A stretch of DNA of 64,000 nucleotides, taken from Microgenomates group bacterium. GTDB taxonomy: Bacteria; Patescibacteriota; Microgenomatia; Daviesbacterales; UBA10151. Shown here one piece after another: positions 1 to 12,867 of the stretch. The notes beneath the pieces were generated by a model. It was not told the DNA's origin. It was given only the letters and a program-made list of their open reading frames with translations, and made no database searches. The position numbers were made by a program, and so were the translations under genes. Numbering within the stretch: the first letter of the stretch is position 1; each line of letters begins with the position of its first letter. Location of the stretch: positions 640,589 to 704,588 of the forward strand of contig JBAZXP010000001.1 in the NCBI GenBank assembly GCA_041659805.1. The letters run 5' to 3'.

Positions 1-422
1 TTAATGGAATACCCGCCATCCTTTAAAATCTTTTTAGAGTTAATTATAAAATTGGGGACACCTTCTAGATGTTCGAGAACATAACGGGAAACGACTAAAT
101 CTACTGATTGAGGTTTAAGGGGTAATGGTTTATTAATATCTGCGACTAATGTTTTGTTTGCACTAATGTTTTTTTCTAATTCGCTTTCATCTTCATCGAC
201 TACTATTAATTGATTTTTTAGTTTTTTGTTAAGATATTTTACAAAAGGGCTTGATCTTCCTCCTCCAAGATCTACAATCACCTGATTTTTTTGTTTGTTT
301 GCATATTCTGAAACTATCTGGGAATATTTATCAGTAATGTCTGGTTTTGCATGAGGAAGCATCTTTTCTATTTTTCTGCTGATATTTTGATTTAATTCAA
401 TAAATTTTTTTAACTGATTCAT
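1..422 (-). CDS. Class I SAM-dependent methyltransferase. The 3' end runs out of the window; the start codon is at 420-422.
   Basis: Minus-strand ORF begins MNQLKKFIELNQ... It contains VVDLGGGRS (a glycine-rich SAM motif-I-like stretch), DLVVSRYVLEHL and KDGGYSI (post-motif II-like). It lies immediately upstream and divergent of the Wzm/Wzt pair, which fits a glycan-modifying methyltransferase. Confidence 0.5.
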   Translation of the reverse strand, partial: MNQLKKFIELNQNISRKIEKMLPHAKPDITDKYSQIVSEYANKQKNQVIVDLGGGRSSPFVKYLNKKLKNQLIVVDEDESELEKNISANKTLVADINKPLPLKPQSVDLVVSRYVLEHLEGVPNFIINSKKILKDGGYSI

Positions 423-487
423 ATATTGTTAACCTTGATTTATTATACCTTTAAACTTAAAATTGATTCCAGGCTTATAGGGAAAAA

Positions 488-1270
488 ATGATTATACAAA
501 AAAATAAAATATTTAAGTATAAGGATTTGTTTTGGCAATTAACTTTGCGAGACATTAAGGCAAAATATAAACAATCTTATCTGGGTTATTCCTGGGTAAT
601 TTTAGTGCCTTTAATTAATTTAACTGTGCTCAGCATTGTATTTACTTTTGTTTTTAAAGTTCCGACTGGACCGGTTCCGTATCCTGTTTATTTATTTACC
701 GCGCTTGTTCCCTGGCTGTTTATGTCAAATGCTATAGTTGCAGCAACCGGAAGTGTTTTAGCAAATTCATCGCTTGTCACAAAAATATATTTACCCAGAG
801 AAATTTTGCCGTTATCGGCGATTGCGTCAAAATTGGTTGATTTATTTTTAACTGCGGTCATATTGGGATTATTTATGATTCTTTTTAGAGTTCCTTTCCA
901 TACTTCAATTCTATTCGTTCCCATAATTTTATTTATTCAAGTGATGTTGATAACAGGTATATCTTTTATTCTTTCTGCCAGCAATGTTTTCTATAGAGAT
1001 ATAGAACATGCAATCGGAGTAATACTCGGTGTTTGGATGTATCTAACGCCTGTTGTTTATTCTCCTGATTTAATTCCACCTGATTTAAAAATATTTTTTT
1101 ATTTAAACCCGATGAGTGGAATAATTGATGCTTATAGAGCAACCATCCTATACGGTGTTATTCCTTTATGGCCGGCATTTTTATATTCTTTCCTTTTTTC
1201 ACTTATTATTTTTATAGTGGGCTATTTTTATTTTAGAGCTAATGCCAAATATTTTGCAGAAGTAATATAA
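488..1270 (+). CDS. ABC-2 type polysaccharide/O-antigen export permease (Wzm/TagG/KpsM-like)
   Basis: A 260-aa product with about 6 TM segments and the ABC-2 family N-terminus (KDLFWQLTLRDIKAKYKQSYLGYSWVIL). It is immediately followed by its ATPase partner. Confidence 0.8.
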   Translation: MIIQKNKIFKYKDLFWQLTLRDIKAKYKQSYLGYSWVILVPLINLTVLSIVFTFVFKVPTGPVPYPVYLFTALVPWLFMSNAIVAATGSVLANSSLVTKIYLPREILPLSAIASKLVDLFLTAVILGLFMILFRVPFHTSILFVPIILFIQVMLITGISFILSASNVFYRDIEHAIGVILGVWMYLTPVVYSPDLIPPDLKIFFYLNPMSGIIDAYRATILYGVIPLWPAFLYSFLFSLIIFIVGYFYFRANAKYFAEVI

Positions 1271-1272
1271 AT

Positions 1273-2004
1273 ATGGGCGAAAACTTTGTAATCAAATTAG
1301 ATAATGTTAGTAAAAAATTTAAGCGTGGGCATAGACTTCTTTTGAAGGAAGCTTTGTTAGATTTATTTAGAGCGCCAAGACAAGAGGATTTTTGGGCATT
1401 GAAAAGCGTAAGTTTTAAAATCAAAAAAGGGGAATCCATAGGAATAATTGGAAGCAACGGTTCCGGGAAAAGCACGATTTTAAAACTGATCGCAGGTGTT
1501 TTGACGCCAACTCATGGAACGATTAAAGTACAGGGTAAGATAGGCCCTTTAATAGAACTTGGCGCAGGATTCCATCCGGAATTAACAGGTCGGGAGAATA
1601 TATATTTAAACGGGACTATTTTGGGGTTATCTATAAAAGAAATCGATGCTAAATTTGATGAGATTGTTAATTTCTCAGAACTTTCAGATTTTATCGATAC
1701 TCCTGTTAAACATTATTCTTCAGGTATGTATATGAGGTTAGGTTTTGCTATAGCTGTTCATGTTGAACCGGACATATTGTTGGTTGATGAAATTTTATCA
1801 GTTGGCGACATTGGTTTTCAAAAGAAATGTTTGGATAAAATGAAGGAATTTCACAAAAACGGGGTTACGGTTATAGTTATCTCCCATTCTCCGGATTTAA
1901 TTAAATCCTTTTGTAAAAAAGTTTTTTTAATAAATCAGGGGAAAATTATTGGTGTGGGATTAACAGAAAACATAATTAAAAAATATAATAAATTAATAAA
2001 TTAA
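1273..2004 (+). CDS. ABC transporter ATP-binding protein (Wzt/TagH/KpsT-like) with no C-terminal carbohydrate-binding extension
   Basis: Walker A is GSNGSGKST, the ABC signature is YSSGMYMRLGFA, and Walker B is ILLVDE. It starts 3 nt after the permease stop. Confidence 0.85.
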   Translation: MGENFVIKLDNVSKKFKRGHRLLLKEALLDLFRAPRQEDFWALKSVSFKIKKGESIGIIGSNGSGKSTILKLIAGVLTPTHGTIKVQGKIGPLIELGAGFHPELTGRENIYLNGTILGLSIKEIDAKFDEIVNFSELSDFIDTPVKHYSSGMYMRLGFAIAVHVEPDILLVDEILSVGDIGFQKKCLDKMKEFHKNGVTVIVISHSPDLIKSFCKKVFLINQGKIIGVGLTENIIKKYNKLIN

Positions 2005-2043
2005 AAATAATATTCAATTGGTACCTTTATTTATCAAATTCAT

Positions 2044-2451
2044 ATGACTACTAAATCCATTGTTTCTTTCTTTGATAAAGATCCTCTTTTAAGTAAACTA
2101 ATTTCTTTTTTGCGTAAATTAAAACACAAGCTTTATCGCTTGAAAAAGGCTTTTTATTATAGAAGCTCAATTCTTATTAAAGAGGATCTTTACGAAAGAG
2201 ACTTTATTTTTCTAAAAAAGGAAACAAATAAATGGGTAGCATTAGATTTTGAAAATGTAGGAAATGATTTATATATAAAAATTAAAAGATTAAAAGATGG
2301 AAAGATATTTTTACTCGATCAACCTTTTTTTTATACTTTACAGCTTGGGATGACTAAAAACGCCTCTACAGAAGTAGAATTTGTATATGCCGTAAAGAAA
2401 TATACATACAACAATATATTAAAAACATTAAAAATCCTTAATCTATGCTAA
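2044..2451 (+). CDS. Hypothetical protein inside the glycan cluster
   Basis: A 135-aa ORF in the same orientation and spacing as the cluster. No recognisable motif. Confidence 0.3.
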   Translation: MTTKSIVSFFDKDPLLSKLISFLRKLKHKLYRLKKAFYYRSSILIKEDLYERDFIFLKKETNKWVALDFENVGNDLYIKIKRLKDGKIFLLDQPFFYTLQLGMTKNASTEVEFVYAVKKYTYNNILKTLKILNLC

Positions 2452-3635
2452 AGAATATATTACTTGTAAATATCGCTTATCCCCCACACCACTATGGTGG
2501 ATCAGGAATTAATATCAAGAATCTTACCGTTTTTTTACAAGATCTTGGTTACAATGTGTTCGTATTTACCGGAGGAAGAAGGGAAGAAATAGTTAATGAT
2601 AGCGGAGTTATAATTTATAGAAATAAAAGTCATGTTCAGGAAAACTCTCCGCTTTCCAATTCTAATTATTTAAGAAAAGTTTTAGAAAGAAAATTTATCA
2701 ATATAATTAAAAAAAATAATATTAATATAGTTCATTTTAATTCCATCCAGGGTTTAGGGGCAAATCTTATTAAGTTATCTTTGAAACTTGATATAAAGAC
2801 TTTTCTTACAATGCACGATTTTTGGTGGATTTGTCCTTCACTTTTCTTAAAGAGTTCTCATAGCCAAACAGTTCCTTTTCATAATCATGAGCAATTTTGT
2901 TACAAAGGTTCTTATGCAGAGAGGCTCCTAAAAAGAAAACAATATTTATATGAGATCTTAAAAGAAAATAAGCTTAAAATTATTTCTGTTTCAGAATCCG
3001 CAAAAAAGGCATTGATTTATCTTGGGTTACCAAATGCAAAAAATTATTTAGTTGTAGAGAATGGGATAATACCCTGTACTTTTGATAAAGTTAATTTAAC
3101 CGAAAAAAAAGAAGGAAAAGTGGTATTTTCTTTTTTGGGTGGTGTTGATATATCGGTGAAAGGGTTTCATTTAATATATGGAGCGTCAAGCTATCTTAAA
3201 CTAAATACAGATAAATATGAGATTAGGTGCTATCGTGTTTTAGATCATGCTTTAAAAACCATCTTTAATTATAATTCTCTCCGTAAACGTAATATAAAAC
3301 TATTTGGCACGTTTGATAACTCGAAAATTTATCAAATCTTATCAGAAACGGACTGTCTTATTGTTCCGAGTCAAGCCTATGAAACTTTTTCGATGAGTGC
3401 AAGGGAGGCTTTATTTGCAGAAAAAATATTAATTTCTTCCGGAATGGGTGCACTTTCAGAAATTCCTTCACCGAAACATATTATCTTTAATAAAAACTCG
3501 TCCCAAGATTTAGCAGAAAAGATGTTTGATGTAATTAATAATATAGATAGTCTTAGGACAAGAGATAGTGGTTTGCAAATTAAGACTCTTAGTGACCAGG
3601 CAAAGAATCTTCATATTTTATATCAGGGAAATTAA
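2445..3635 (+). CDS. Glycosyltransferase (GT4-like, group 1)
   Basis: A 396-aa product whose N-terminus (LLVNIAYPPHHYGGSGINIKNL) is typical of GT-B/GT4 enzymes. It sits in the glycan cluster. Confidence 0.55.
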   Translation: MLKNILLVNIAYPPHHYGGSGINIKNLTVFLQDLGYNVFVFTGGRREEIVNDSGVIIYRNKSHVQENSPLSNSNYLRKVLERKFINIIKKNNINIVHFNSIQGLGANLIKLSLKLDIKTFLTMHDFWWICPSLFLKSSHSQTVPFHNHEQFCYKGSYAERLLKRKQYLYEILKENKLKIISVSESAKKALIYLGLPNAKNYLVVENGIIPCTFDKVNLTEKKEGKVVFSFLGGVDISVKGFHLIYGASSYLKLNTDKYEIRCYRVLDHALKTIFNYNSLRKRNIKLFGTFDNSKIYQILSETDCLIVPSQAYETFSMSAREALFAEKILISSGMGALSEIPSPKHIIFNKNSSQDLAEKMFDVINNIDSLRTRDSGLQIKTLSDQAKNLHILYQGN

Positions 3636-3636
3636 A

Positions 3637-4674
3637 ATGATAAGTATTGTTATTGTAAATTTTAATGGCGGAATAAAGGTTGTGAAATCGGTAAGAAGTG
3701 TGTTGGCTCAAGCGCACCGTGATTATGAGTTGATTGTTGTAGATAATGGATCGACCGATAATTCGAAAGATGAAATTATTCAAAAATTTTCCGGAAAAAT
3801 TAAATTAATTGAATTGAAAAAAAATTTTGGTTTCACAAAAGGATGTAATTTGGGGATATCTGAAAGTAAAGGAGAGTATATTATGTTCCTGAATAATGAT
3901 GCTTATTTGTCAGGCAAAAACTTTCTTGTTATTGCAGAAAATATTTTAAAAAAATCCAAAAATAATATTTGTGGGATTTTCCCGAAAGTTTTTTTTAATT
4001 GGGAAAAAAACGTATTAAACAGTACTTATGCAATATGGCATAAAGATATACTGTGGTTTGACGAACATATAGGTTCGGTAGATCCTGAATTATTAAGTTT
4101 GGATGATCAACAGAAGGAAGTGTTTGGGGCAATGTTTATTGCACCAATATTTAAAAAAAGTATTCTTGAAAGCAGCGGTGGATTTGACGAGATGTTATTT
4201 ACTTACGGTGAAGATTTTGATTTATCTTACCGCATGAATATTTACGGATATAAATTTTTGTATACGCCTTTAATTAAGGTTTATCATGATTATAGATCTT
4301 CGTCGTTAGACGAGATTCAACCGCTTTGGTCGTATTTTTATTTTTTACGGAATTATTTAATTGTTATTCTTAAAAATTATGAACTGAAAAATATTATCGG
4401 TAAATTTTCAAGTTATACCTATCATTTCAGGGTTGCTTTAAAACATTCGATTAAATTTAAAGAGTGGCGGAAAATGTTGTTAATGCTCAAAATTCTTATT
4501 AGTCTTTTGTTTTTGGCCCCATTAATTATTAAAAAAAGATTAGAGATACAGCGTAAACGAAAATTTAATGATGTAAAAATTTGGTCGAATGAGTTTGTAA
4601 TTAACTATAATCCCAATTTTTATAATTCACATATTGTTTTAAATTCCGGAAATGTTACTAAAATAAGAAAATAA
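3637..4674 (+). CDS. Glycosyltransferase family 2
   Basis: ATG at 3637. The start MISIVIVNFNGG...VLAQAHRDYELIVVDNGSTDNS is the GT2 N-terminal signature. DxD-like motifs are present (FLNNDAY, GEDFDLSYR). Confidence 0.75.
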   Translation: MISIVIVNFNGGIKVVKSVRSVLAQAHRDYELIVVDNGSTDNSKDEIIQKFSGKIKLIELKKNFGFTKGCNLGISESKGEYIMFLNNDAYLSGKNFLVIAENILKKSKNNICGIFPKVFFNWEKNVLNSTYAIWHKDILWFDEHIGSVDPELLSLDDQQKEVFGAMFIAPIFKKSILESSGGFDEMLFTYGEDFDLSYRMNIYGYKFLYTPLIKVYHDYRSSSLDEIQPLWSYFYFLRNYLIVILKNYELKNIIGKFSSYTYHFRVALKHSIKFKEWRKMLLMLKILISLLFLAPLIIKKRLEIQRKRKFNDVKIWSNEFVINYNPNFYNSHIVLNSGNVTKIRK

Positions 4675-4676
4675 AT

Positions 4677-6101
4677 ATGAATAAGGAAAAATTTCTTAAA
4701 AAGAATGAGTTATGGGTATGGGGCCTTCTTTCTTTTTTACTATTTTTGAAATTCATTTTTGTTACAAGTTTGGATAGGAATAATTTTTTACTAACATATC
4801 CGTATTTTACCCCGGACAGCTACCGCTTATTGGCGTCAGGAATAAGGTTGTTTGATTCGGCAAATCCCACATTTCATAATTTCGGCTTTTCGTTTATTGT
4901 TAATCTTTTACATTCATTTAATTCACTTTTCCTCTTGGTTTTGATAAATCATTTGGTCTTTTTAGGAATAATTTTTTTTGTATTTAAAATTTCTAAACTT
5001 CTAACGAACAGCTTTTATTGGAGTTTTTTAGTTGTTATATTCATGTTTTTAAATTATAATCTTCAAATTTTTGCAAATTATATTTTAGCGGATTATTATG
5101 CAATATTTTTTATTGCTGTGTCTTCCTATCTGTTAATTTCTGAAAGGATTAGATTATCCTTTTTTTTGCTGGGAATTTCTGGATTATTTCAAAATTTAGC
5201 ATTTATTATTTCTCCTGTTTGGTTTCTGTATTTATATTATATAAAAAATGTCTCAGCAGGTTTTATACTAGGTAGTTTTAATAAGCTCGCTGTTTTATTT
5301 TTACTATTGTTAGGTTTTAATCTACCTTGGTATTTATATAAAATATTTAATTTCGGTAATCCTTTTTATTCAAAAGTTGATCAATTTCATTTGCTTCAAC
5401 CGAATTTTAACTCATTATTCTTCTACTTTATTAATGCATATACTTTATTCGGCGCAATGTTCTTTTTAGTTGTTTATTCGTTATTAACCCGATATAAATC
5501 ATATTTATTTGATAGAAAAACCCTTTTTTTAACTTTAGGGTTTTTTACAACACTTCTTTTTTGGACAGTTTTTTACGAATGGAATGACAGAAGATTTTTG
5601 CTCTATTTGGTTCCTTTCGTATACCCCCTGTTTGCACTGTATTTAAAAAATACTTTTACAAGTAAAATTAATTTTAAATTTATAATTGTCATTCTATTAT
5701 TGCTATATCCTACAAGTATTTCATTGGGATCTTTTTTTAACAGTAATACAATTATGATAACAAACTGGGATAAAATAACCTTTTATGCTTTCTCTGACGA
5801 GATACAACAAGCGCATATATCTTTTCCTATAAAATACGAGCATGCGCATTTTACAGCTGTACGAGCTTTGAATATAGTTTATATCGAGTCCATAGGTCAT
5901 TATTTTGTAGCACCAAAAGTAGTAGGGACACTATATTCTAAATATCGAATTATTATAGAAAAAGGATATAACAAAAACACAAATGAGATTTGTATAGGGG
6001 ATAATGAGATTTCAGCATATGAGTTTAGTAATATTTTATTGATTATAAAAAATATAAATTTAGATAATATTAAATTAGTCAAAAATTGTTCACCTAAATG
6101 A
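4677..6101 (+). CDS. Polytopic membrane protein. It may be a GT-C-type glycosyltransferase or an O-antigen polymerase/ligase-like protein.
   Basis: A 474-aa product with more than 10 predicted TM helices throughout, rich in F/L/Y. It lies between two GT2 genes in the glycan cluster. Confidence 0.4.
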   Translation: MNKEKFLKKNELWVWGLLSFLLFLKFIFVTSLDRNNFLLTYPYFTPDSYRLLASGIRLFDSANPTFHNFGFSFIVNLLHSFNSLFLLVLINHLVFLGIIFFVFKISKLLTNSFYWSFLVVIFMFLNYNLQIFANYILADYYAIFFIAVSSYLLISERIRLSFFLLGISGLFQNLAFIISPVWFLYLYYIKNVSAGFILGSFNKLAVLFLLLLGFNLPWYLYKIFNFGNPFYSKVDQFHLLQPNFNSLFFYFINAYTLFGAMFFLVVYSLLTRYKSYLFDRKTLFLTLGFFTTLLFWTVFYEWNDRRFLLYLVPFVYPLFALYLKNTFTSKINFKFIIVILLLLYPTSISLGSFFNSNTIMITNWDKITFYAFSDEIQQAHISFPIKYEHAHFTAVRALNIVYIESIGHYFVAPKVVGTLYSKYRIIIEKGYNKNTNEICIGDNEISAYEFSNILLIIKNINLDNIKLVKNCSPK

Positions 6102-7078
6102 AATCGATGAAAAAAGATATGCTAGTTTCTGTTGTCATACCATCTTGGAATGGCATTGAATTGCTTAATGATTGTTTATTGTCTTTAGAGAAGCAGTCGT
6201 ATAAGTCTTTAGAGGTTATTGTTGTCGACAATGGATCTTCTGATGATTCAGTTAAATATATAAAATCAAATTTTCCAAAGTTTAAAGTAGTCGAGCTTTC
6301 ATATAATCAGGGTTTCTCTGTAGCAGTGAATATTGGGATTAAGAAATCTTTGGGCGAGTATATTTTTATACTTAATAACGATACAGAAGTAGATAAAAAT
6401 TGTATTTTACATTTGGTCAAAGCACTAAGTAAAAACCAGGAAGTAGGAATGATGGCATCTAAGATTTTAAATTTTTATCAAAGAGATTTTATTGATAATG
6501 CAGGAGATGAGCTGGATACTGTAGGACATTTATTGGTTAAAGGATATGGAAAAAAAGACGGATTAAAGTTTAGTAAACAATATTCTTTATTTTTAGTATC
6601 CGGCGGAGGAAGTTTATTCAAGAGGGAGGTATTTGAAAAGATTGGATATTTTGATGAAAGTTATTTTATGTATATGGAAGATGCTGATTTATGCTTTAGA
6701 GCACAGTTGGCAGGATTTAGAGCTTTATTTGAGCCAAGGGCGATAATTTATCATAAAAGAATGGCTACTTCTTCAAAGAATCTTTCACTAGTTGAATGTT
6801 TAAATTTCCGTAACATGACTATGAATATAATCAAGGATTTTCCGGTTGCTTTGCTGATGCACAATTTTAATTGGTTAAAAATTATTTTGGTTAATTTAAA
6901 TACCTTGAAATACTTAATTGGTAAGGGTTATTTGATGGGAGCTTTAAAAGCTGAGTGGTTTATACTTTGTAATTTAAGGGTATTATTTGAAAAAAGAAAA
7001 ATTATACAAAAATCAAAAATTGTATCAGACCAATATATTATTAAAAATGTTAAAGAGAAGAGATGCAATATTTTTTAA
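6098..7078 (+). CDS. Glycosyltransferase family 2 (rhamnosyl/glucosyltransferase-like)
   Basis: VSVVIPSWNGIELLNDCLLSLEKQSYKSLEVIVVDNGSSDDS, a DxD motif (NNDTEVD) and a C-terminal MYMEDADLCFRA motif typical of GT2. Confidence 0.8.
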   Translation: MKSMKKDMLVSVVIPSWNGIELLNDCLLSLEKQSYKSLEVIVVDNGSSDDSVKYIKSNFPKFKVVELSYNQGFSVAVNIGIKKSLGEYIFILNNDTEVDKNCILHLVKALSKNQEVGMMASKILNFYQRDFIDNAGDELDTVGHLLVKGYGKKDGLKFSKQYSLFLVSGGGSLFKREVFEKIGYFDESYFMYMEDADLCFRAQLAGFRALFEPRAIIYHKRMATSSKNLSLVECLNFRNMTMNIIKDFPVALLMHNFNWLKIILVNLNTLKYLIGKGYLMGALKAEWFILCNLRVLFEKRKIIQKSKIVSDQYIIKNVKEKRCNIF

Positions 7079-7815
7079 CTTGTGTATTTTACTTTGCGTG
7101 TTAGTTGGGTGATGTTCCCTGCTTTGTCAGTTGCAATAATAGTTATGGTATTGTCTCCTTCATTTATTTCTATAATCTGAGAGAAGGCACCATCGCCGTC
7201 AACTATAGCTCTGCTGCCGTTAATTGTAATAGTAATATCTTTGTCTGAATTAGTCTTGCCACTGACTGTTATTTTTTTATCTCCGCCTTTAATTTCTGTA
7301 TTATCTGTAGGTGACTGTATGTCTAATTTGGGTTTTTCGTTTGAATAAATAATATAGATTGGTTTTGAAGAAAGACTTTTATTTCCATTATTATCAATTG
7401 TTACCCCTGAAATACTATTAGAACCGAGACTTAGGTCTATTGGGTTACTGATAAAACTTCCGTCTTCTGAAGTGCTGACAGAAGATTTTAGTTCTCCATC
7501 AAGGTAGATCTCTATTGTTGTGTTCGTCAGGCTGTAACCATGAACTAAAATTGTGGCTGTTGAAGTAGCCTCATATGGGATATTTAAAACAGGAGGAGCA
7601 ACGGATGCGTTTTCTTTTATTGACTCAGGTGCTTTTACAGGTGTTTTAAAACGGTTTAATAAAGAAAGACTGCCGATAAATGTCGGAATAAACCAGACAG
7701 CTAAAATATAAAGAAGAACTGCGCAAATAACAATTGTAAGATAAAAGTTCTTTTTGCTTTTTCTTTCTAATCTTCTTGATAAAAATGATTTATTTGTTGT
7801 GCGTCTATGTTTCAT
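7075..7815 (-). CDS. Membrane-anchored protein with Ig-like/beta-sandwich repeats
   Basis: N-terminal basic stretch plus one TM helix (LTIVICAVLLYILAVWFIPTFIG), then S/T/N/G-rich beta-strand-like repeats (ITVSGKTNSDKDITITINGS, TITIIATDKAGN). Confidence 0.4.
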   Translation of the reverse strand: MKHRRTTNKSFLSRRLERKSKKNFYLTIVICAVLLYILAVWFIPTFIGSLSLLNRFKTPVKAPESIKENASVAPPVLNIPYEATSTATILVHGYSLTNTTIEIYLDGELKSSVSTSEDGSFISNPIDLSLGSNSISGVTIDNNGNKSLSSKPIYIIYSNEKPKLDIQSPTDNTEIKGGDKKITVSGKTNSDKDITITINGSRAIVDGDGAFSQIIEINEGDNTITIIATDKAGNITQLTRKVKYTS

Positions 7816-7840
7816 GTTTTCAGATTCCCATTATTCTCGG

Positions 7841-7912
7841 AGCCAACGGTGAGAATTGAACTCACGACCTATCCCTTACGAAGGGAGTGCTCTACCGCTG
7901 AGCTACGTTGGC
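7841..7912 (-). tRNA. tRNA-Thr (anticodon CGT)
   Basis: The reverse complement reads GCCAACGTAGCTCAGCGGTAGAGCACTCCCTTCGTAAGGGATAGGTCGTGAGTTCAATTCTCACCGTTGGCT. It folds into a cloverleaf with a 7-bp acceptor stem, GCTC/GAGC D-stem, anticodon loop TTCGTAA and TTCAATT T-loop. The anticodon stem has one C-U mismatch. CCA is not encoded. Confidence 0.8.
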
Positions 7913-8097
7913 AGGATTGCCAAACTGCTAATGTATATTTTACAGAAAAAAGCCATATTTTACGAGTGAGTAAAAAAAGAATAAGAGCGGGAGATGCAAG
8001 TTATTCCGAACTATTAGAACGATTCATGTTCGCATGGGATTGGATGGACAGGCTTTATTACGCATACCAAAGTACTTCTCAGGAACCTATAACAGAC

Positions 8098-8106
8098 TGA
8101 TATAAT
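8098..8106 (+). promoter_or_regulatory. Extended -10 promoter element (TGATATAAT) ending 7 nt before the ATG at 8113. The downstream transcript is probably leaderless.
   Basis: TGATATAAT occupies 8098-8106 and the start codon is at 8113. There is no room for a Shine-Dalgarno sequence. Confidence 0.35.
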
Positions 8107-8112
8107 ACTATT

Positions 8113-8745
8113 ATGGCAAAAGTTGATTATAGTGAAGATTATTTTGATCAAGTTAAACAACAGTTTAAAGAATTTACAGAGTTTCGTGCAAAAGTTAGTC
8201 AACAGAGTGAGGATCACCAAATACGAAAAAGGGCAGATTTATTAAATACTTACAATCATATAGTTACTTTTATAGGTATAGTGGCTGGATTCGGATTTAC
8301 AGCCATAGATAAAGTTGAAAACATATACCTATTTCTTATGGGCGAAGCGTTTTTTGTTAGTCTATTTATTTTTAACATTTTTTACTTAAAACAGTTTCAT
8401 ATTACTGAAAGCGAGGCTTTTCAAGATATTAGTGAGAAACTGAATAAAATATTTGATGCAAAAAGTAAGGTATACATAGATTTCTTTATGAAGAAACAAA
8501 GTCGAGCTTTCTTTGAAAAAGCACTCGATGAAGCAGTAGCTAATACTGAGACTCCGAAACCAAAACCTACTAAATTAGATTTAAACTTTCTTTTTAATGT
8601 TTCATTGGTACTCATAGTTATTGGCGGACTTTTCTTGCTTTCATCTTTTGTTAATTGGAATTCTCCGTTTAAGAGCGAAAAATTAAAAAATGGCTCTTGG
8701 CAAGATTATCATCGTTTTTCTGAAAAGCCTAATTTCCGACCATAG
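8113..8745 (+). CDS. Hypothetical 3-TM membrane protein, the first gene of the tRNA-flanked island
   Basis: A 210-aa product. It has a charged N-terminus, then predicted helices IVTFIGIVAGFGFTAI, IYLFLMGEAFFVSLFIFNIFYL and LFNVSLVLIVIGGLFLLSSFV. No known motif. Confidence 0.5.
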   Translation: MAKVDYSEDYFDQVKQQFKEFTEFRAKVSQQSEDHQIRKRADLLNTYNHIVTFIGIVAGFGFTAIDKVENIYLFLMGEAFFVSLFIFNIFYLKQFHITESEAFQDISEKLNKIFDAKSKVYIDFFMKKQSRAFFEKALDEAVANTETPKPKPTKLDLNFLFNVSLVLIVIGGLFLLSSFVNWNSPFKSEKLKNGSWQDYHRFSEKPNFRP

Positions 8746-8750
8746 ATACA

Positions 8751-10543
8751 TGACTACTTTGCAAAAATACCTAGTTCTTTCTTTTGGCTACAGAGATTTA
8801 GTGGGAATAACGGGGGCGGGAGGGATCAAAAGAATTGAATCTGAAATTAAAGCTTACAATTTATATGCAGTATTGGAATCATGTTCGAAAATATCACTCA
8901 CTCTTTTAAATAGAGGCGTAGCAAATCCTCTAGGCCAGGCAGAACTACTAAGTGGAATTTTTTCAAACAAAACACAGCGATTGAGATTTTATGAAATAGC
9001 TAGAGCAAAAGCGGCTGGGTCAGCATGGGCAATTTTTAACCAACAAAGCGTACTTGCTCTTGTAAAGATTGCTCTTGCCAATTGTCCGATCGAAGGAGGA
9101 AAAAGTATTGATACAAGCAACATTGAACAACTTGGTTATTGGCTCCTTATTCTGAATGATGAATGCTTCGCAGAAGAAACCGGCGGACAAATAGCTTTAC
9201 CGAGAGGCCATGAAAGAGAAAGACTTAGGCAAGCTCTTGCCCGGTATCAATTTTTCCATATATCTGAAAGGCTGGGCTATAAAATTGGACGGTTTAGATG
9301 GCTGGTCGACTACTTCAAGACACACAAACCCCATGGAATTGACATAGCAAAACTATTTAATGAAGCTACTGGAGGCGTCCCCTTAGATGATTATATGACT
9401 GTATGTTCCTCTCTACTTGTTAAATGGGTCAATATCTCAAATAAAGAAAAGGTGAACCTAACAAATGATTGGATAACCTGTCCTGATGTGTATTTCAAAG
9501 ACACAAAGTTAGAAAAAATATTAATTAAAAGAGTATTAGAAATGATATCTATGTTACCCCAAGAGTTTGAAAATACATATAAAACCTCTGTTGAAGAAAT
9601 ATTGGGTGGTCATGAACAATTTCATTATAATTTTATGCCTTTAGTCTGGAAACCATTAATTTGGTATCAGGATAAGAAGTGTTTTATATGTCCGTCGGTG
9701 GAATATTTATTCGATAAAGTAACCGATGGTATATACAGAACAATTGAGACCTTTTTACGTAATGAAAAAAGAGGGAAAGATAGAGATACATTCTCAATAG
9801 CATGGGGAGATGCATTTGAACAATATATAAACTCTTCTATGTCAAGTGCATTTGGGAATGATTTTTACCCAAGTTCTATGGATAAGAAATCAAAGGAAGA
9901 AATGGCAGATGGCATTATCGACTCAGCAAGTTTTGTGTTTATAGTAGAGACCAAAAATCTTCATTGGTCATATAAAGCAATGGTAACAGGAGATCTTGAA
10001 AGTTCGGGATCCTCACTCAAGCAATTATTTACAGATAAAGGTCTGGCTCAAATAGCAAAGTGCATAAGGAAAACTAAGAATGGTGAATGGAAGCTACCTG
10101 TAGATATCAAGGATAAACAATTTATTCCCGTTCTTGTGGTATCTGAAGGAATGCCTGGGGATGCATACAATCGTAAACTTTATGAAACAATCGCTGAGAA
10201 AGCTAAGTCAATAATTAATGATAAGGATATCTTACCCTTTATTATTTTAACTGCAGAGGAAATAGAGATACTTGAAGCAATTTCTTCAGAAAAAGGTAGC
10301 GAAGAGACAATACAAATTCTTGCTGAATATGCACACCTGTACGTTACTAAAAATGACTTGGGATACGTTCCTGATGCAATTAGTTTCAAAAATTATCTTT
10401 ATCATAAGGGTTACGAAAAACCACAGCTTTCATCTAATAATAAAAGACTATTAAAATATTTCGATGATGTTATGGATGATGTATGTGTTCAGGCATTCGG
10501 AAGAAAAATAGAAAAGAGACGGAAAAAGAGCAAGGAAGCTTAG
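8751..10543 (+). CDS. Large hypothetical protein (about 597 aa) with a candidate PD-(D/E)xK nuclease-like signature in its C-terminal half
   Basis: ATG at 8751 lies 5 nt after the upstream stop. The ORF track offers an alternative start at 8690 that would overlap the upstream gene. The motif GIIDSASFVFIVETKN at 9911-9957 has the form h-h-D-x8-hhhh-E-x-K. An upstream acidic helix (GDAFEQY) is present. There is no Walker A, and the N-terminal 300 aa are unrecognised. Confidence 0.5.
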
Positions 10544-10674: not shown

Positions 10675-10748
10675 TGGAGCGGGATACCAGAATCGAACTG
10701 GCTTCTCTACCTTGGGAAGGTAGCATACTACCGGTATACGAATCCCGC
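10675..10748 (-). tRNA. tRNA-Gly (anticodon CCC), CCA encoded
   Basis: The reverse complement reads GCGGGATTCGTATACCGGTAGTATGCTACCTTCCCAAGGTAGAGAAGCCAGTTCGATTCTGGTATCCCGCTCCA. The anticodon stem is CTACC/GGTAG with loop TTCCCAA. The T-arm is GCCAG-TTCGATT-CTGGT. The D-stem is weak and has G-U pairs. Confidence 0.7.
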
Positions 10749-12465: not shown

Positions 12466-12867
12466 AATTTTTCTTTTATCGATAGGCAATCTTAATCGTC
12501 TACTAATTTCTTGTAGCTCTGCTTTTAACGATTCAGCACCTAATTCCATTACATCTGCAGAGAAGTCTTCTCCACCACCGGACATTTGATCAAAAGATAT
12601 TAAAGAAAAGCTCAAAATAGTTCCTGTAGTGCTTAGTTCTCTTCTTAAAATTTCAATTTGATGGTAAATAGAAGCACCCATCTCAGGAGTTTCCCCTTTT
12701 ATCACTACTTGTCTACTAGTGTAACCTTGACTAATTAATTCTTGTAGGGTTTTAGATGCTAAGCGATCTATTTTTAAATACACGTTATTATCCAAAAATT
12801 TAATTTCTTCGTCTATCTCTATTTTAAATTGTTCAAATTTATATGGTTCAACATCCGGTTGACTCAT
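12445..12867 (-). CDS. Hypothetical protein
   Basis: A 140-aa ORF convergent with the HIT gene. Not recognised. Confidence 0.3.
   Translation of the reverse strand: MSQPDVEPYKFEQFKIEIDEEIKFLDNNVYLKIDRLASKTLQELISQGYTSRQVVIKGETPEMGASIYHQIEILRRELSTTGTILSFSLISFDQMSGGGEDFSADVMELGAESLKAELQEISRRLRLPIDKRKILPIVIR

Follow-up and report, generated by a model that had tools for sequence, protein, structure and literature searches.

A predicted stand-alone nuclease distantly related to the anti-phage protein GapS1 in a Microgenomates bacterium

Introduction

The window analysed here is a stretch of 64,000 nucleotides (nt) from a Microgenomates group bacterium (contig JBAZXP010000001.1, positions 640,589 to 704,588). 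At 8750-10543 on its plus strand lies a gene of 597 codons plus a stop, whose product is probably a nuclease that acts alone in anti-phage defence, in the manner of GapS1. We propose this function because the product combines a predicted two-domain fold, a conserved PD-(D/E)xK site and homology to GapS1 with independence from any partner gene and a variable or mobile genomic setting.

GAPS1 is a single-protein defence system found on a Vibrio mobile island (Mahata et al., bioRxiv 10.1101/2023.03.28.534373). The Vibrio parahaemolyticus protein has a C-terminal PD-(D/E)xK domain, in which the D313A and K328A substitutions each abolish protection. T7 phages escaping GAPS1 are mutated in the capsid protein, and co-expression of the capsid with GAPS1 leads to dormancy. 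Escherichia coli homologs guard against coliphages, and deletion of the native gene from a clinical E. coli isolate sensitised it to phages. To count a protein as GAPS1, the authors of that study required RPS-BLAST to align it with an E value no higher than 1e-15 over 70% or more of the GAPS1 position-specific scoring matrix (bioRxiv 10.1101/2023.03.28.534373).

Results

Conservation points to the active site

The true start of the gene is the ATG at 8750, because the database protein P0001, 100% identical to the window protein, has 597 residues, and because 22 of 22 close homologs begin with M-x-T-x-x-QKY. The start at 8690 given by the open reading frame (ORF) finder, which yields 617 amino acids (aa), is an artefact: the first 20 codons of this longer frame (8690-8749, plus strand) are absent from all homologs and overlap the 3' end of an upstream gene of 210 aa. 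Read from 8750, the nuclease gene begins 4 nt past the stop of that upstream ORF. Residues are numbered below on the 597-aa protein, and all features described within the gene are on the plus strand.

An initial annotation of the window had singled out the peptide GIIDSASFVFIVETK, encoded at 9911-9955, as a PD-(D/E)xK signature; the span 9908-9958 reads DGIIDSASFVFIVETKN in translation. It had also proposed that a helix farther upstream, WGDAFEQY, supplies the first carboxylate, and 9797-9823 reads IAWGDAFEQ in the same frame as the ORF 8690-10543. Five instances of a loose version of the motif (two hydrophobic residues, D, a gap of 6-20 residues, two hydrophobic residues, E-x-K) were present in the window's six-frame stop-free segments of at least 100 aa (21,964 residues in total), and the pattern also arose in 4.7% of shuffles of the window protein. 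The bare string is therefore weak evidence. Judged on the alignments, it is conservation, and not the string, that settles the motif as a real nuclease active site.

Two alignments were used, a close one of 22 homologs with 38-100% identity, and a wider one of 93 diverse family members with a mean identity of ~20%. Residues E357, D387, G388, F397, E400, K402 and W406 were invariant across the close homologs. In the wider family, the Glu-x-Lys of the initial annotation held up well: within E400-T401-K402 (9947-9955), E400 was kept in 92 of 93 members and K402 in 81. The catalytic Asp, on the other hand, had been misplaced. It had been assigned to the Asp of "IID", D391 (9920-9922), a position where D is found in only 15 of 93 members and where V, L, E, I and Y are also common. 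Four residues upstream, D387 (9908-9910) is kept in 92 of 93; this residue, in "ADG" and one codon ahead of the flagged peptide, is by its conservation the predicted catalytic Asp. The helix Glu of WGDAFEQY proved a sound candidate: E357 (9818-9820), in a G-x-x-F-E-x-Y motif, is the putative first metal ligand, the wider family having E in 66 and Q in 17 of 93 members.

Other positions were conserved to a similar degree in the wider alignment. Y359 and R181 (9290-9292), an Arg of the N-terminal helical domain, were each kept in 92 of 93 members, and Q434 (10049-10051), on the helix after the E-x-K strand, in 88. An acidic EE-x-E motif, E503-E504-I505-E506 (10256-10267), starts the helix that follows the last core strand; E506 was found in 86 of 93 members, and position 504 was E in 61 and D in 23. 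A zinc site at C311/C314 was considered and rejected, C311 being a Cys in only 6 of 93.

Predicted fold

A model built by AlphaFold2 on the alignment of 22 sequences had a mean pLDDT (predicted local distance difference test) of 88.4 and a pTM (predicted template modelling score) of 0.88. In this model, residues 1-300 (8750-9649) form an all-helical domain of 13 helices, with pLDDT mostly above 85, which is putatively a sensor or regulatory domain. The PD-(D/E)xK core, delimited by the secondary structure of the model, by Foldseek and by a profile match to Can2 (see below), covers residues 342-515 (9773-10294). It begins with helix 342-371, which carries E357, followed by strands 372-377, 384-391 (D387) and 395-402 (E400 and K402), and continues with a helix region at 408-443 (Q434), strand 457-464, helix 472-484, strand 498-501 and helix 502-515. 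The order around the motif is thus the helix-strand-strand-strand-helix-strand expected of this nuclease fold, with the Asp on strand 2 and the (D/E)xK on strand 3. Fold, conservation and profile matches together bear out the initial assignment of the C-terminal half to a PD-(D/E)xK nuclease domain, and from them we infer a metal-dependent nuclease activity.

The N-terminal half had been described as lacking a Walker motif, and no Walker A was found in the window protein. It had also been described as uncharacterised. This is correct insofar as that half has no Pfam domain match, yet residues from ~156 onwards are homologous to GapS1. No known DNA-recognition domain was found with Pfam, either in the window protein or in 82 family members.

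Relationship to GapS1

The only match in the family libraries was to NCBIfam NF047931 (GapS1 family protein), at 48.4-48.5 bits (E 6e-13), between residues 197-492 and model positions 125-398 of 455. NF047931 matched 59 of 82 diverse family members, with a best E value of 1.1e-21, and among ten family members scanned individually the highest score was 73.6 bits. As a control, E. coli GapS1 (WP_032260687.1, 508 aa) scored 401.6 bits on the same model.

This E. coli protein and that of V. parahaemolyticus (WP_005477165.1) served as GapS1 references. The former was traced from the first 380 nt of a cloned homolog, EJP5250929.1, listed in the supplementary table of the GAPS1 paper. The fragment was 99.7-100% identical to two complete E. 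coli chromosomes, within a gene annotated gapS1, and the 5' 380 nt of the WP_032260687 gene are identical to EJP5250929.1, a homolog protective against coliphages. The E. coli homolog fragment WP_152927281.1 gave no match in complete E. coli genomes. In strain Ecol_AZ147 (NZ_CP018995.1, L022:4973-7527), gapS1 lies directly after the integrase that ends a P2-like prophage, and before ypjA. We take this position to be a known site of defence cargo.

A profile of 82 family members, compared to E. coli GapS1 as single target, matched it with 70.6 bits (E 4.6e-24), over profile positions 155-524 and E. coli GapS1 residues about 104-462. The profile-guided alignment has 339 columns, with 15.6% identity, and covers residues 156-534 of the window protein. 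Similarity to a validated GapS1 thus runs past the nuclease core, from the helical region through the EE-x-E helix. Each near-invariant residue of the family is paired with an identical one in E. coli GapS1, apart from E400, whose partner is an Asp. The pairs (window protein first) are R181 and R132, P302 and P238, G353 and G279, F356 and F282, E357 and E283, D387 and D315, E400 and D328, K402 and K330, Q434 and Q361, E503 and E434, E504 and E435, and E506 and E437. A D-to-K spacing of 15 is common to the window protein, E. coli GapS1, V. parahaemolyticus GAPS1 (D313/K328) and Can2. Kinship to E. coli GapS1 was detectable through profiles only. These comparisons place the window protein, which is no orphan, as a very distant homolog of GapS1.

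Both are single-protein systems, helical in their N-terminal part and with the PD-(D/E)xK domain towards the C-terminus. Mobile elements carry the gene in both cases, or it occupies an integration hot spot, and it has no obligatory partner gene. They differ in length, 508-532 aa for GapS1 versus 597 aa for the window protein, in which ~155 N-terminal residues are additional or unrelated and a helical C-terminal tail has ~60 residues. GapS1 hosts are Proteobacteria and Firmicutes, whereas the host here is a candidate-phyla-radiation bacterium, Microgenomates- or Woesebacteria-like judging from the source names of identical or near-identical proteins. Lastly, phage protection and the capsid trigger were seen for the V. 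parahaemolyticus and E. coli proteins, while the window protein is known from its sequence and model.

Comparison with other nucleases

With Foldseek, the sole match below 1e-3 in the Protein Data Bank (PDB) was the defence protein Upx (9wuf; E 1.5e-4, probability 1.0, 566 columns), which is the closest solved structure to the model at a template modelling score (TM-score) of just 0.31. Further matches were Nt.BspD6I, the R.BspD6I small subunit, the R2 retrotransposon endonuclease, McrC, HamA, LmuA, HincII and Hjc; the interpretable PDB matches were all PD-(D/E)xK enzymes. Upx is a defence system of one protein, in which a large sensor region that is not an NTPase precedes a C-terminal PD-(D/E)xK core with the D and the ExK on adjacent strands, an architecture like that predicted for the window protein; a structural or packaging protein of the phage activates Upx (PMC13099982, PMC13601566). 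Whereas the window protein has 597 aa and one core, Upx has ~1,270 aa in three domains, the N-terminal of which contains an atypical nuclease besides the C-terminal one (PMC13099982). Its D-to-E spacing is 15 (D1161, E1176) instead of 13, and the PDB search with the 82-member family profile gave no sequence-level match to Upx.

That same profile did match Can2 among PDB sequences (7bdv, E 3.6e-6). The catalytic residues are in register: G-x-x-F-E-x-Y (with E243), D278 and E291-x-K293 of Can2 correspond to G353..E357..Y359, D387 and E400-x-K402. The D, 12 residues, E-x-K pattern of Can2/Card1 has a D-to-E-to-K spacing identical to that of the window protein, and the E276A/D278A variant of Can2 is inactive (PMC7969007). 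The similarity is, however, confined to ~65 residues, in the catalytic motif only. Can2 senses cyclic tetra-adenylate via a CARF domain and acts with type III CRISPR (PMC7969007), whereas the window protein, with its all-helical N-terminal half and no Pfam match there, has neither a CARF domain nor a CRISPR context.

A large family without annotation

A HMMER search with the 22-sequence alignment returned 1,423 cluster representatives, defined at 50% identity, with E ≤ 1e-3, and 574 with E ≤ 1e-10. Among the best 150 of the 1,423 matches, most are 560-630 aa long and aligned along most of their length. A second homolog search, with the broad alignment as query, added almost no members. Pfam lacks a model for the family, whose members are called "hypothetical" by every source that names them. 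Single-protein searches against Pfam, PADLOC, PHROGs and PDB sequences gave sub-threshold noise only (for instance Csa5/Cas11a at E ~0.03-0.05), and Pfam and PADLOC run over 82 family members revealed no consistent family, with two marginal NERD matches only.

Searching for related loci with the close alignment yielded three genome loci, six metagenome loci and no viral locus. The close-homolog contigs CAZWYN010000006.1 and CALBHK010000092.1, and that of P0016, come from metagenome-assembled genomes labelled Pseudomonadales, Chlamydiae and Nitrosocosmicus; other close-homolog contigs are labelled Patescibacteria or Woesebacteria. Such mixed labels point to faulty binning or else to transfer between very distant hosts.

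On plasmids, tblastn with P0001, P0165 and P0172 as queries recovered no annotated GapS1. The matches were actinobacterial relatives of P0172, plus weak ones in Nostoc and Sinorhizobium. P0172, an actinobacterial relative of 631 aa, matches positions 2-388 of the GapS1 model at only 42 bits. Copies 35-50% identical to it are numerous on linear and circular Streptomyces plasmids, some under the label "nuclease-related domain-containing protein", and this group forms another unclassified branch of the same superfamily.

Genomic setting

In the window, the gene is found between tRNA-Thr(CGT) (7839-7912, minus strand) and tRNA-Gly(CCC) (10675-10748, minus strand), both identified with ARAGORN and Rfam. 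The 2.8 kb between these two tRNAs hold the nuclease gene and the unrelated gene for a predicted membrane protein of 210 aa (8113-8745, plus strand; no Pfam match); Rfam detected no RNA element at the locus besides the tRNAs. Beyond the tRNA pair are, on one side, an Ig-like surface protein with a glycosyltransferase cluster and, on the other, a LysM protein, a HIT protein, tRNA-Asp and DNA polymerase X. In a related genome (L001) the flanking genes recur, as does the tRNA pair (L001:7639-7710 and 12702-12773), which there encloses 5 kb with five genes; the nuclease gene of L001 is inverted relative to the flanks. Between the two genomes the nucleases are 61.6% identical, and the flanking proteins 27-45%. 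The tRNA-Thr(CGT)/tRNA-Gly(CCC) interval is thus a hot spot of variable cargo common to two related genomes.

No neighbour was conserved in all eight contexts of the nuclease gene. One relative is beside the gene for transfer-messenger RNA, with a serine recombinase and a BrnT/CopG pair. Another, L013, adjoins a serine recombinase, two DNA methyltransferases and an excisionase-like helix-turn-helix protein. The gene also occurs downstream of TraC/VirB4-like conjugation genes, next to both an XRE regulator and a phage capsid fragment, and after tRNA-Asn. The gene family therefore resides in mobile or variable regions, without a partner gene.

Some adjacent genes recur in part of the contexts. 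The 210-aa gene of the window is possibly co-transcribed with the nuclease gene. It was rejected as an operon partner, being missing from all other nuclease loci and having homologs of its own that occur without the nuclease. These are a handful of proteins, 67-83% identical (L023-L026), in other variable regions where the GapS1-like gene is absent, and they adjoin an XRE regulator, a predicted nuclease (pP_pnuc_1), DUF6941 and MerR. The 210-aa protein may be independent mobile cargo.

In three related loci (L005:5412-7958, plus strand; also L006 and L007), a protein of 848 aa without Pfam match directly follows tRNA-Asn and ends 43 nt before the GapS1-like gene. It is seen in the sub-branch of P0010 (66% identity), and could be a lineage-specific partner. 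Two further loci have a convergent gene for a 235-aa protein just downstream of the GapS1-like gene (L001:10272-10979 and L012:5361-6068, both minus strand), which is absent from the window and from the remaining loci. The two 235-aa proteins are 53% identical to each other; they carry a PD..ExK-like string (RTPDVEA...LLESKS), with no precomputed Pfam match on record.

Three other candidates at the window locus were discarded. A 97-aa ORF at 7807-8100 (plus strand) is an artefact of the ORF finder, being an antisense reading of tRNA-Thr. An insertion with tRNA-derived direct repeats was sought at the locus and none was found. The gene is not a compositionally foreign island, its GC content being 0.356 versus 0.347 for the window. 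Elsewhere, the glycosyltransferase/ABC-transporter cluster at 1-7838 has a GC content of 0.295, versus ~0.35-0.36 in the rest of the window. Low GC often marks exchangeable surface-polysaccharide loci.

Discussion

We propose that the gene at 8750-10543 probably encodes a stand-alone defence nuclease of the GapS1 type. In such an enzyme, the helical N-terminal domain would pack on the C-terminal nuclease and keep it silent. By analogy with GapS1, sensing of a phage protein, the capsid protein in the GAPS1 case, would release the enzyme. E357, D387 and E400 would bind a divalent metal, and K402 would be the catalytic lysine. Once activated, the enzyme would cleave nucleic acid in a metal-dependent manner, and thereby arrest growth or phage replication.

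Several observations weigh against this proposal. Nuclease activity, a defence role, a trigger, a substrate and autoinhibition are predictions for this family, and the analogy with GapS1 does not extend to the effector step. The score of 48.5 bits is to be compared with a cutoff of 320 bits for NF047931, which leaves the protein outside the curated GapS1 family; direct BLASTP against E. coli GapS1 was not significant (E 0.011), and the first ~155 and last ~60 residues have no GapS1 counterpart. As for the setting, neither a recombinase nor any other recognisable defence gene is present at the window locus, insertion-marking repeats are absent, the GC content is unremarkable (0.356 vs 0.347), and the locus search with the close alignment found no homolog on viral contigs. 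Finally, the N-terminal domain is no more variable than the nuclease domain, in contrast to many sensors that evolve fast. A hypervariable sensor domain was rejected because conservation is even along the protein, which also argues against a rapidly diversifying sensor surface.

Could the enzyme rather be a restriction endonuclease, of Type II/IIS or of the modification-dependent Type IV, with an N-terminal domain that recognises DNA directly? We regard this as unlikely, since methyltransferases are absent from seven of eight contexts and the match to BspD6I is limited to the core. Foldseek did align the model with the Type IIS-like nickase Nt.BspD6I over ~600 columns (E 2.6e-3), and with the R.BspD6I small subunit, McrC and HincII; Nt.BspD6I and R.BspD6I (PDB 5liq, 2ewf, 2p14) have a PD-(D/E)xK core, a similar size and a non-catalytic N-terminal region. 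However, only the nuclease core superposes, the full-length alignments having a TM-score of ~0.2 and a root mean square deviation of ~23 Å, and there is no sequence similarity. The two methyltransferases next to L013 fit a restriction enzyme, as does the occurrence of a single mobile gene, which is also the case for Type IV enzymes. They are the only ones in the eight contexts: no methyltransferase is present between the two tRNAs or in the adjacent genes of the window. Nor was a known DNA-recognition domain found, and sequence homology favours GapS1, which works without a methyltransferase and is triggered by a capsid protein.

There is likewise little chance, in our estimation, that the nuclease serves its host mobile element or the DNA metabolism of the cell (recombination, repair, maintenance, toxin-like addiction) without a part in phage defence. 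Recombination and repair often involve PD-(D/E)xK domains. Some relatives reside within conjugative or integrative elements, the window locus lies amid housekeeping genes, and the rate of evolution is no higher in the N-terminal than in the catalytic domain, all of which would suit such a role. Yet the distribution is patchy, as a single gene whose neighbours differ each time, and service to an element is made unlikely by the fact that no single type of element is constant. Members of the homologous GapS1 family, moreover, defend E. coli from phages, as supported by deletion of a native gene. That the motif arose by chance, in a domain that never was a nuclease or has lost its activity, appears very improbable. 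The frequency of the loose string, in the window and among shuffles, and the non-conserved D391 picked initially would agree with chance. Conservation and fold contradict it: D387, E400 and K402 are near-invariant at a mean family identity of ~20%, the predicted fold is the canonical core, and the Can2 and GapS1 profile matches hold the catalytic residues in register.

If the protein is a GapS1-type defence nuclease, how should it be classified? With NF047931 taken as proxy, the match (E 6e-13 over 60% of the model) would probably fall short of the criterion set by the authors of the GAPS1 study. We did not file the protein as a GapS1 member, because the curated threshold was missed by a wide margin and because its termini are distinct. 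A tentative view, on which we would not insist, is that the ~600-aa proteins form a separate, unnamed defence family, built on the catalytic and central scaffold of GapS1 but with their own N-terminal ~155 residues and C-terminal tail. These family-specific termini could sense a different trigger.

No new mechanism is revealed here, and the finding will not surprise specialists of phage defence. What is new is the unannotated set of distant ~600-aa relatives, the host lineage being of moderate interest. The analysis gives a likely function, and specific catalytic residues, to a large family listed in databases only as hypothetical. Non-catalytic residues shared with validated GapS1, namely R181, P302, Q434 and the EE-x-E motif, may help explain how GapS1 is regulated. 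GapS1-type single-protein immunity would also be extended to the ultra-small bacteria of the candidate phyla radiation, which to our knowledge are not known for rich defence repertoires, and whose phage biology is, as far as we know, largely unknown. Should the ~600-aa proteins be a separate family, the branch found in the window would count among a small number of defence effectors specific to these bacteria.

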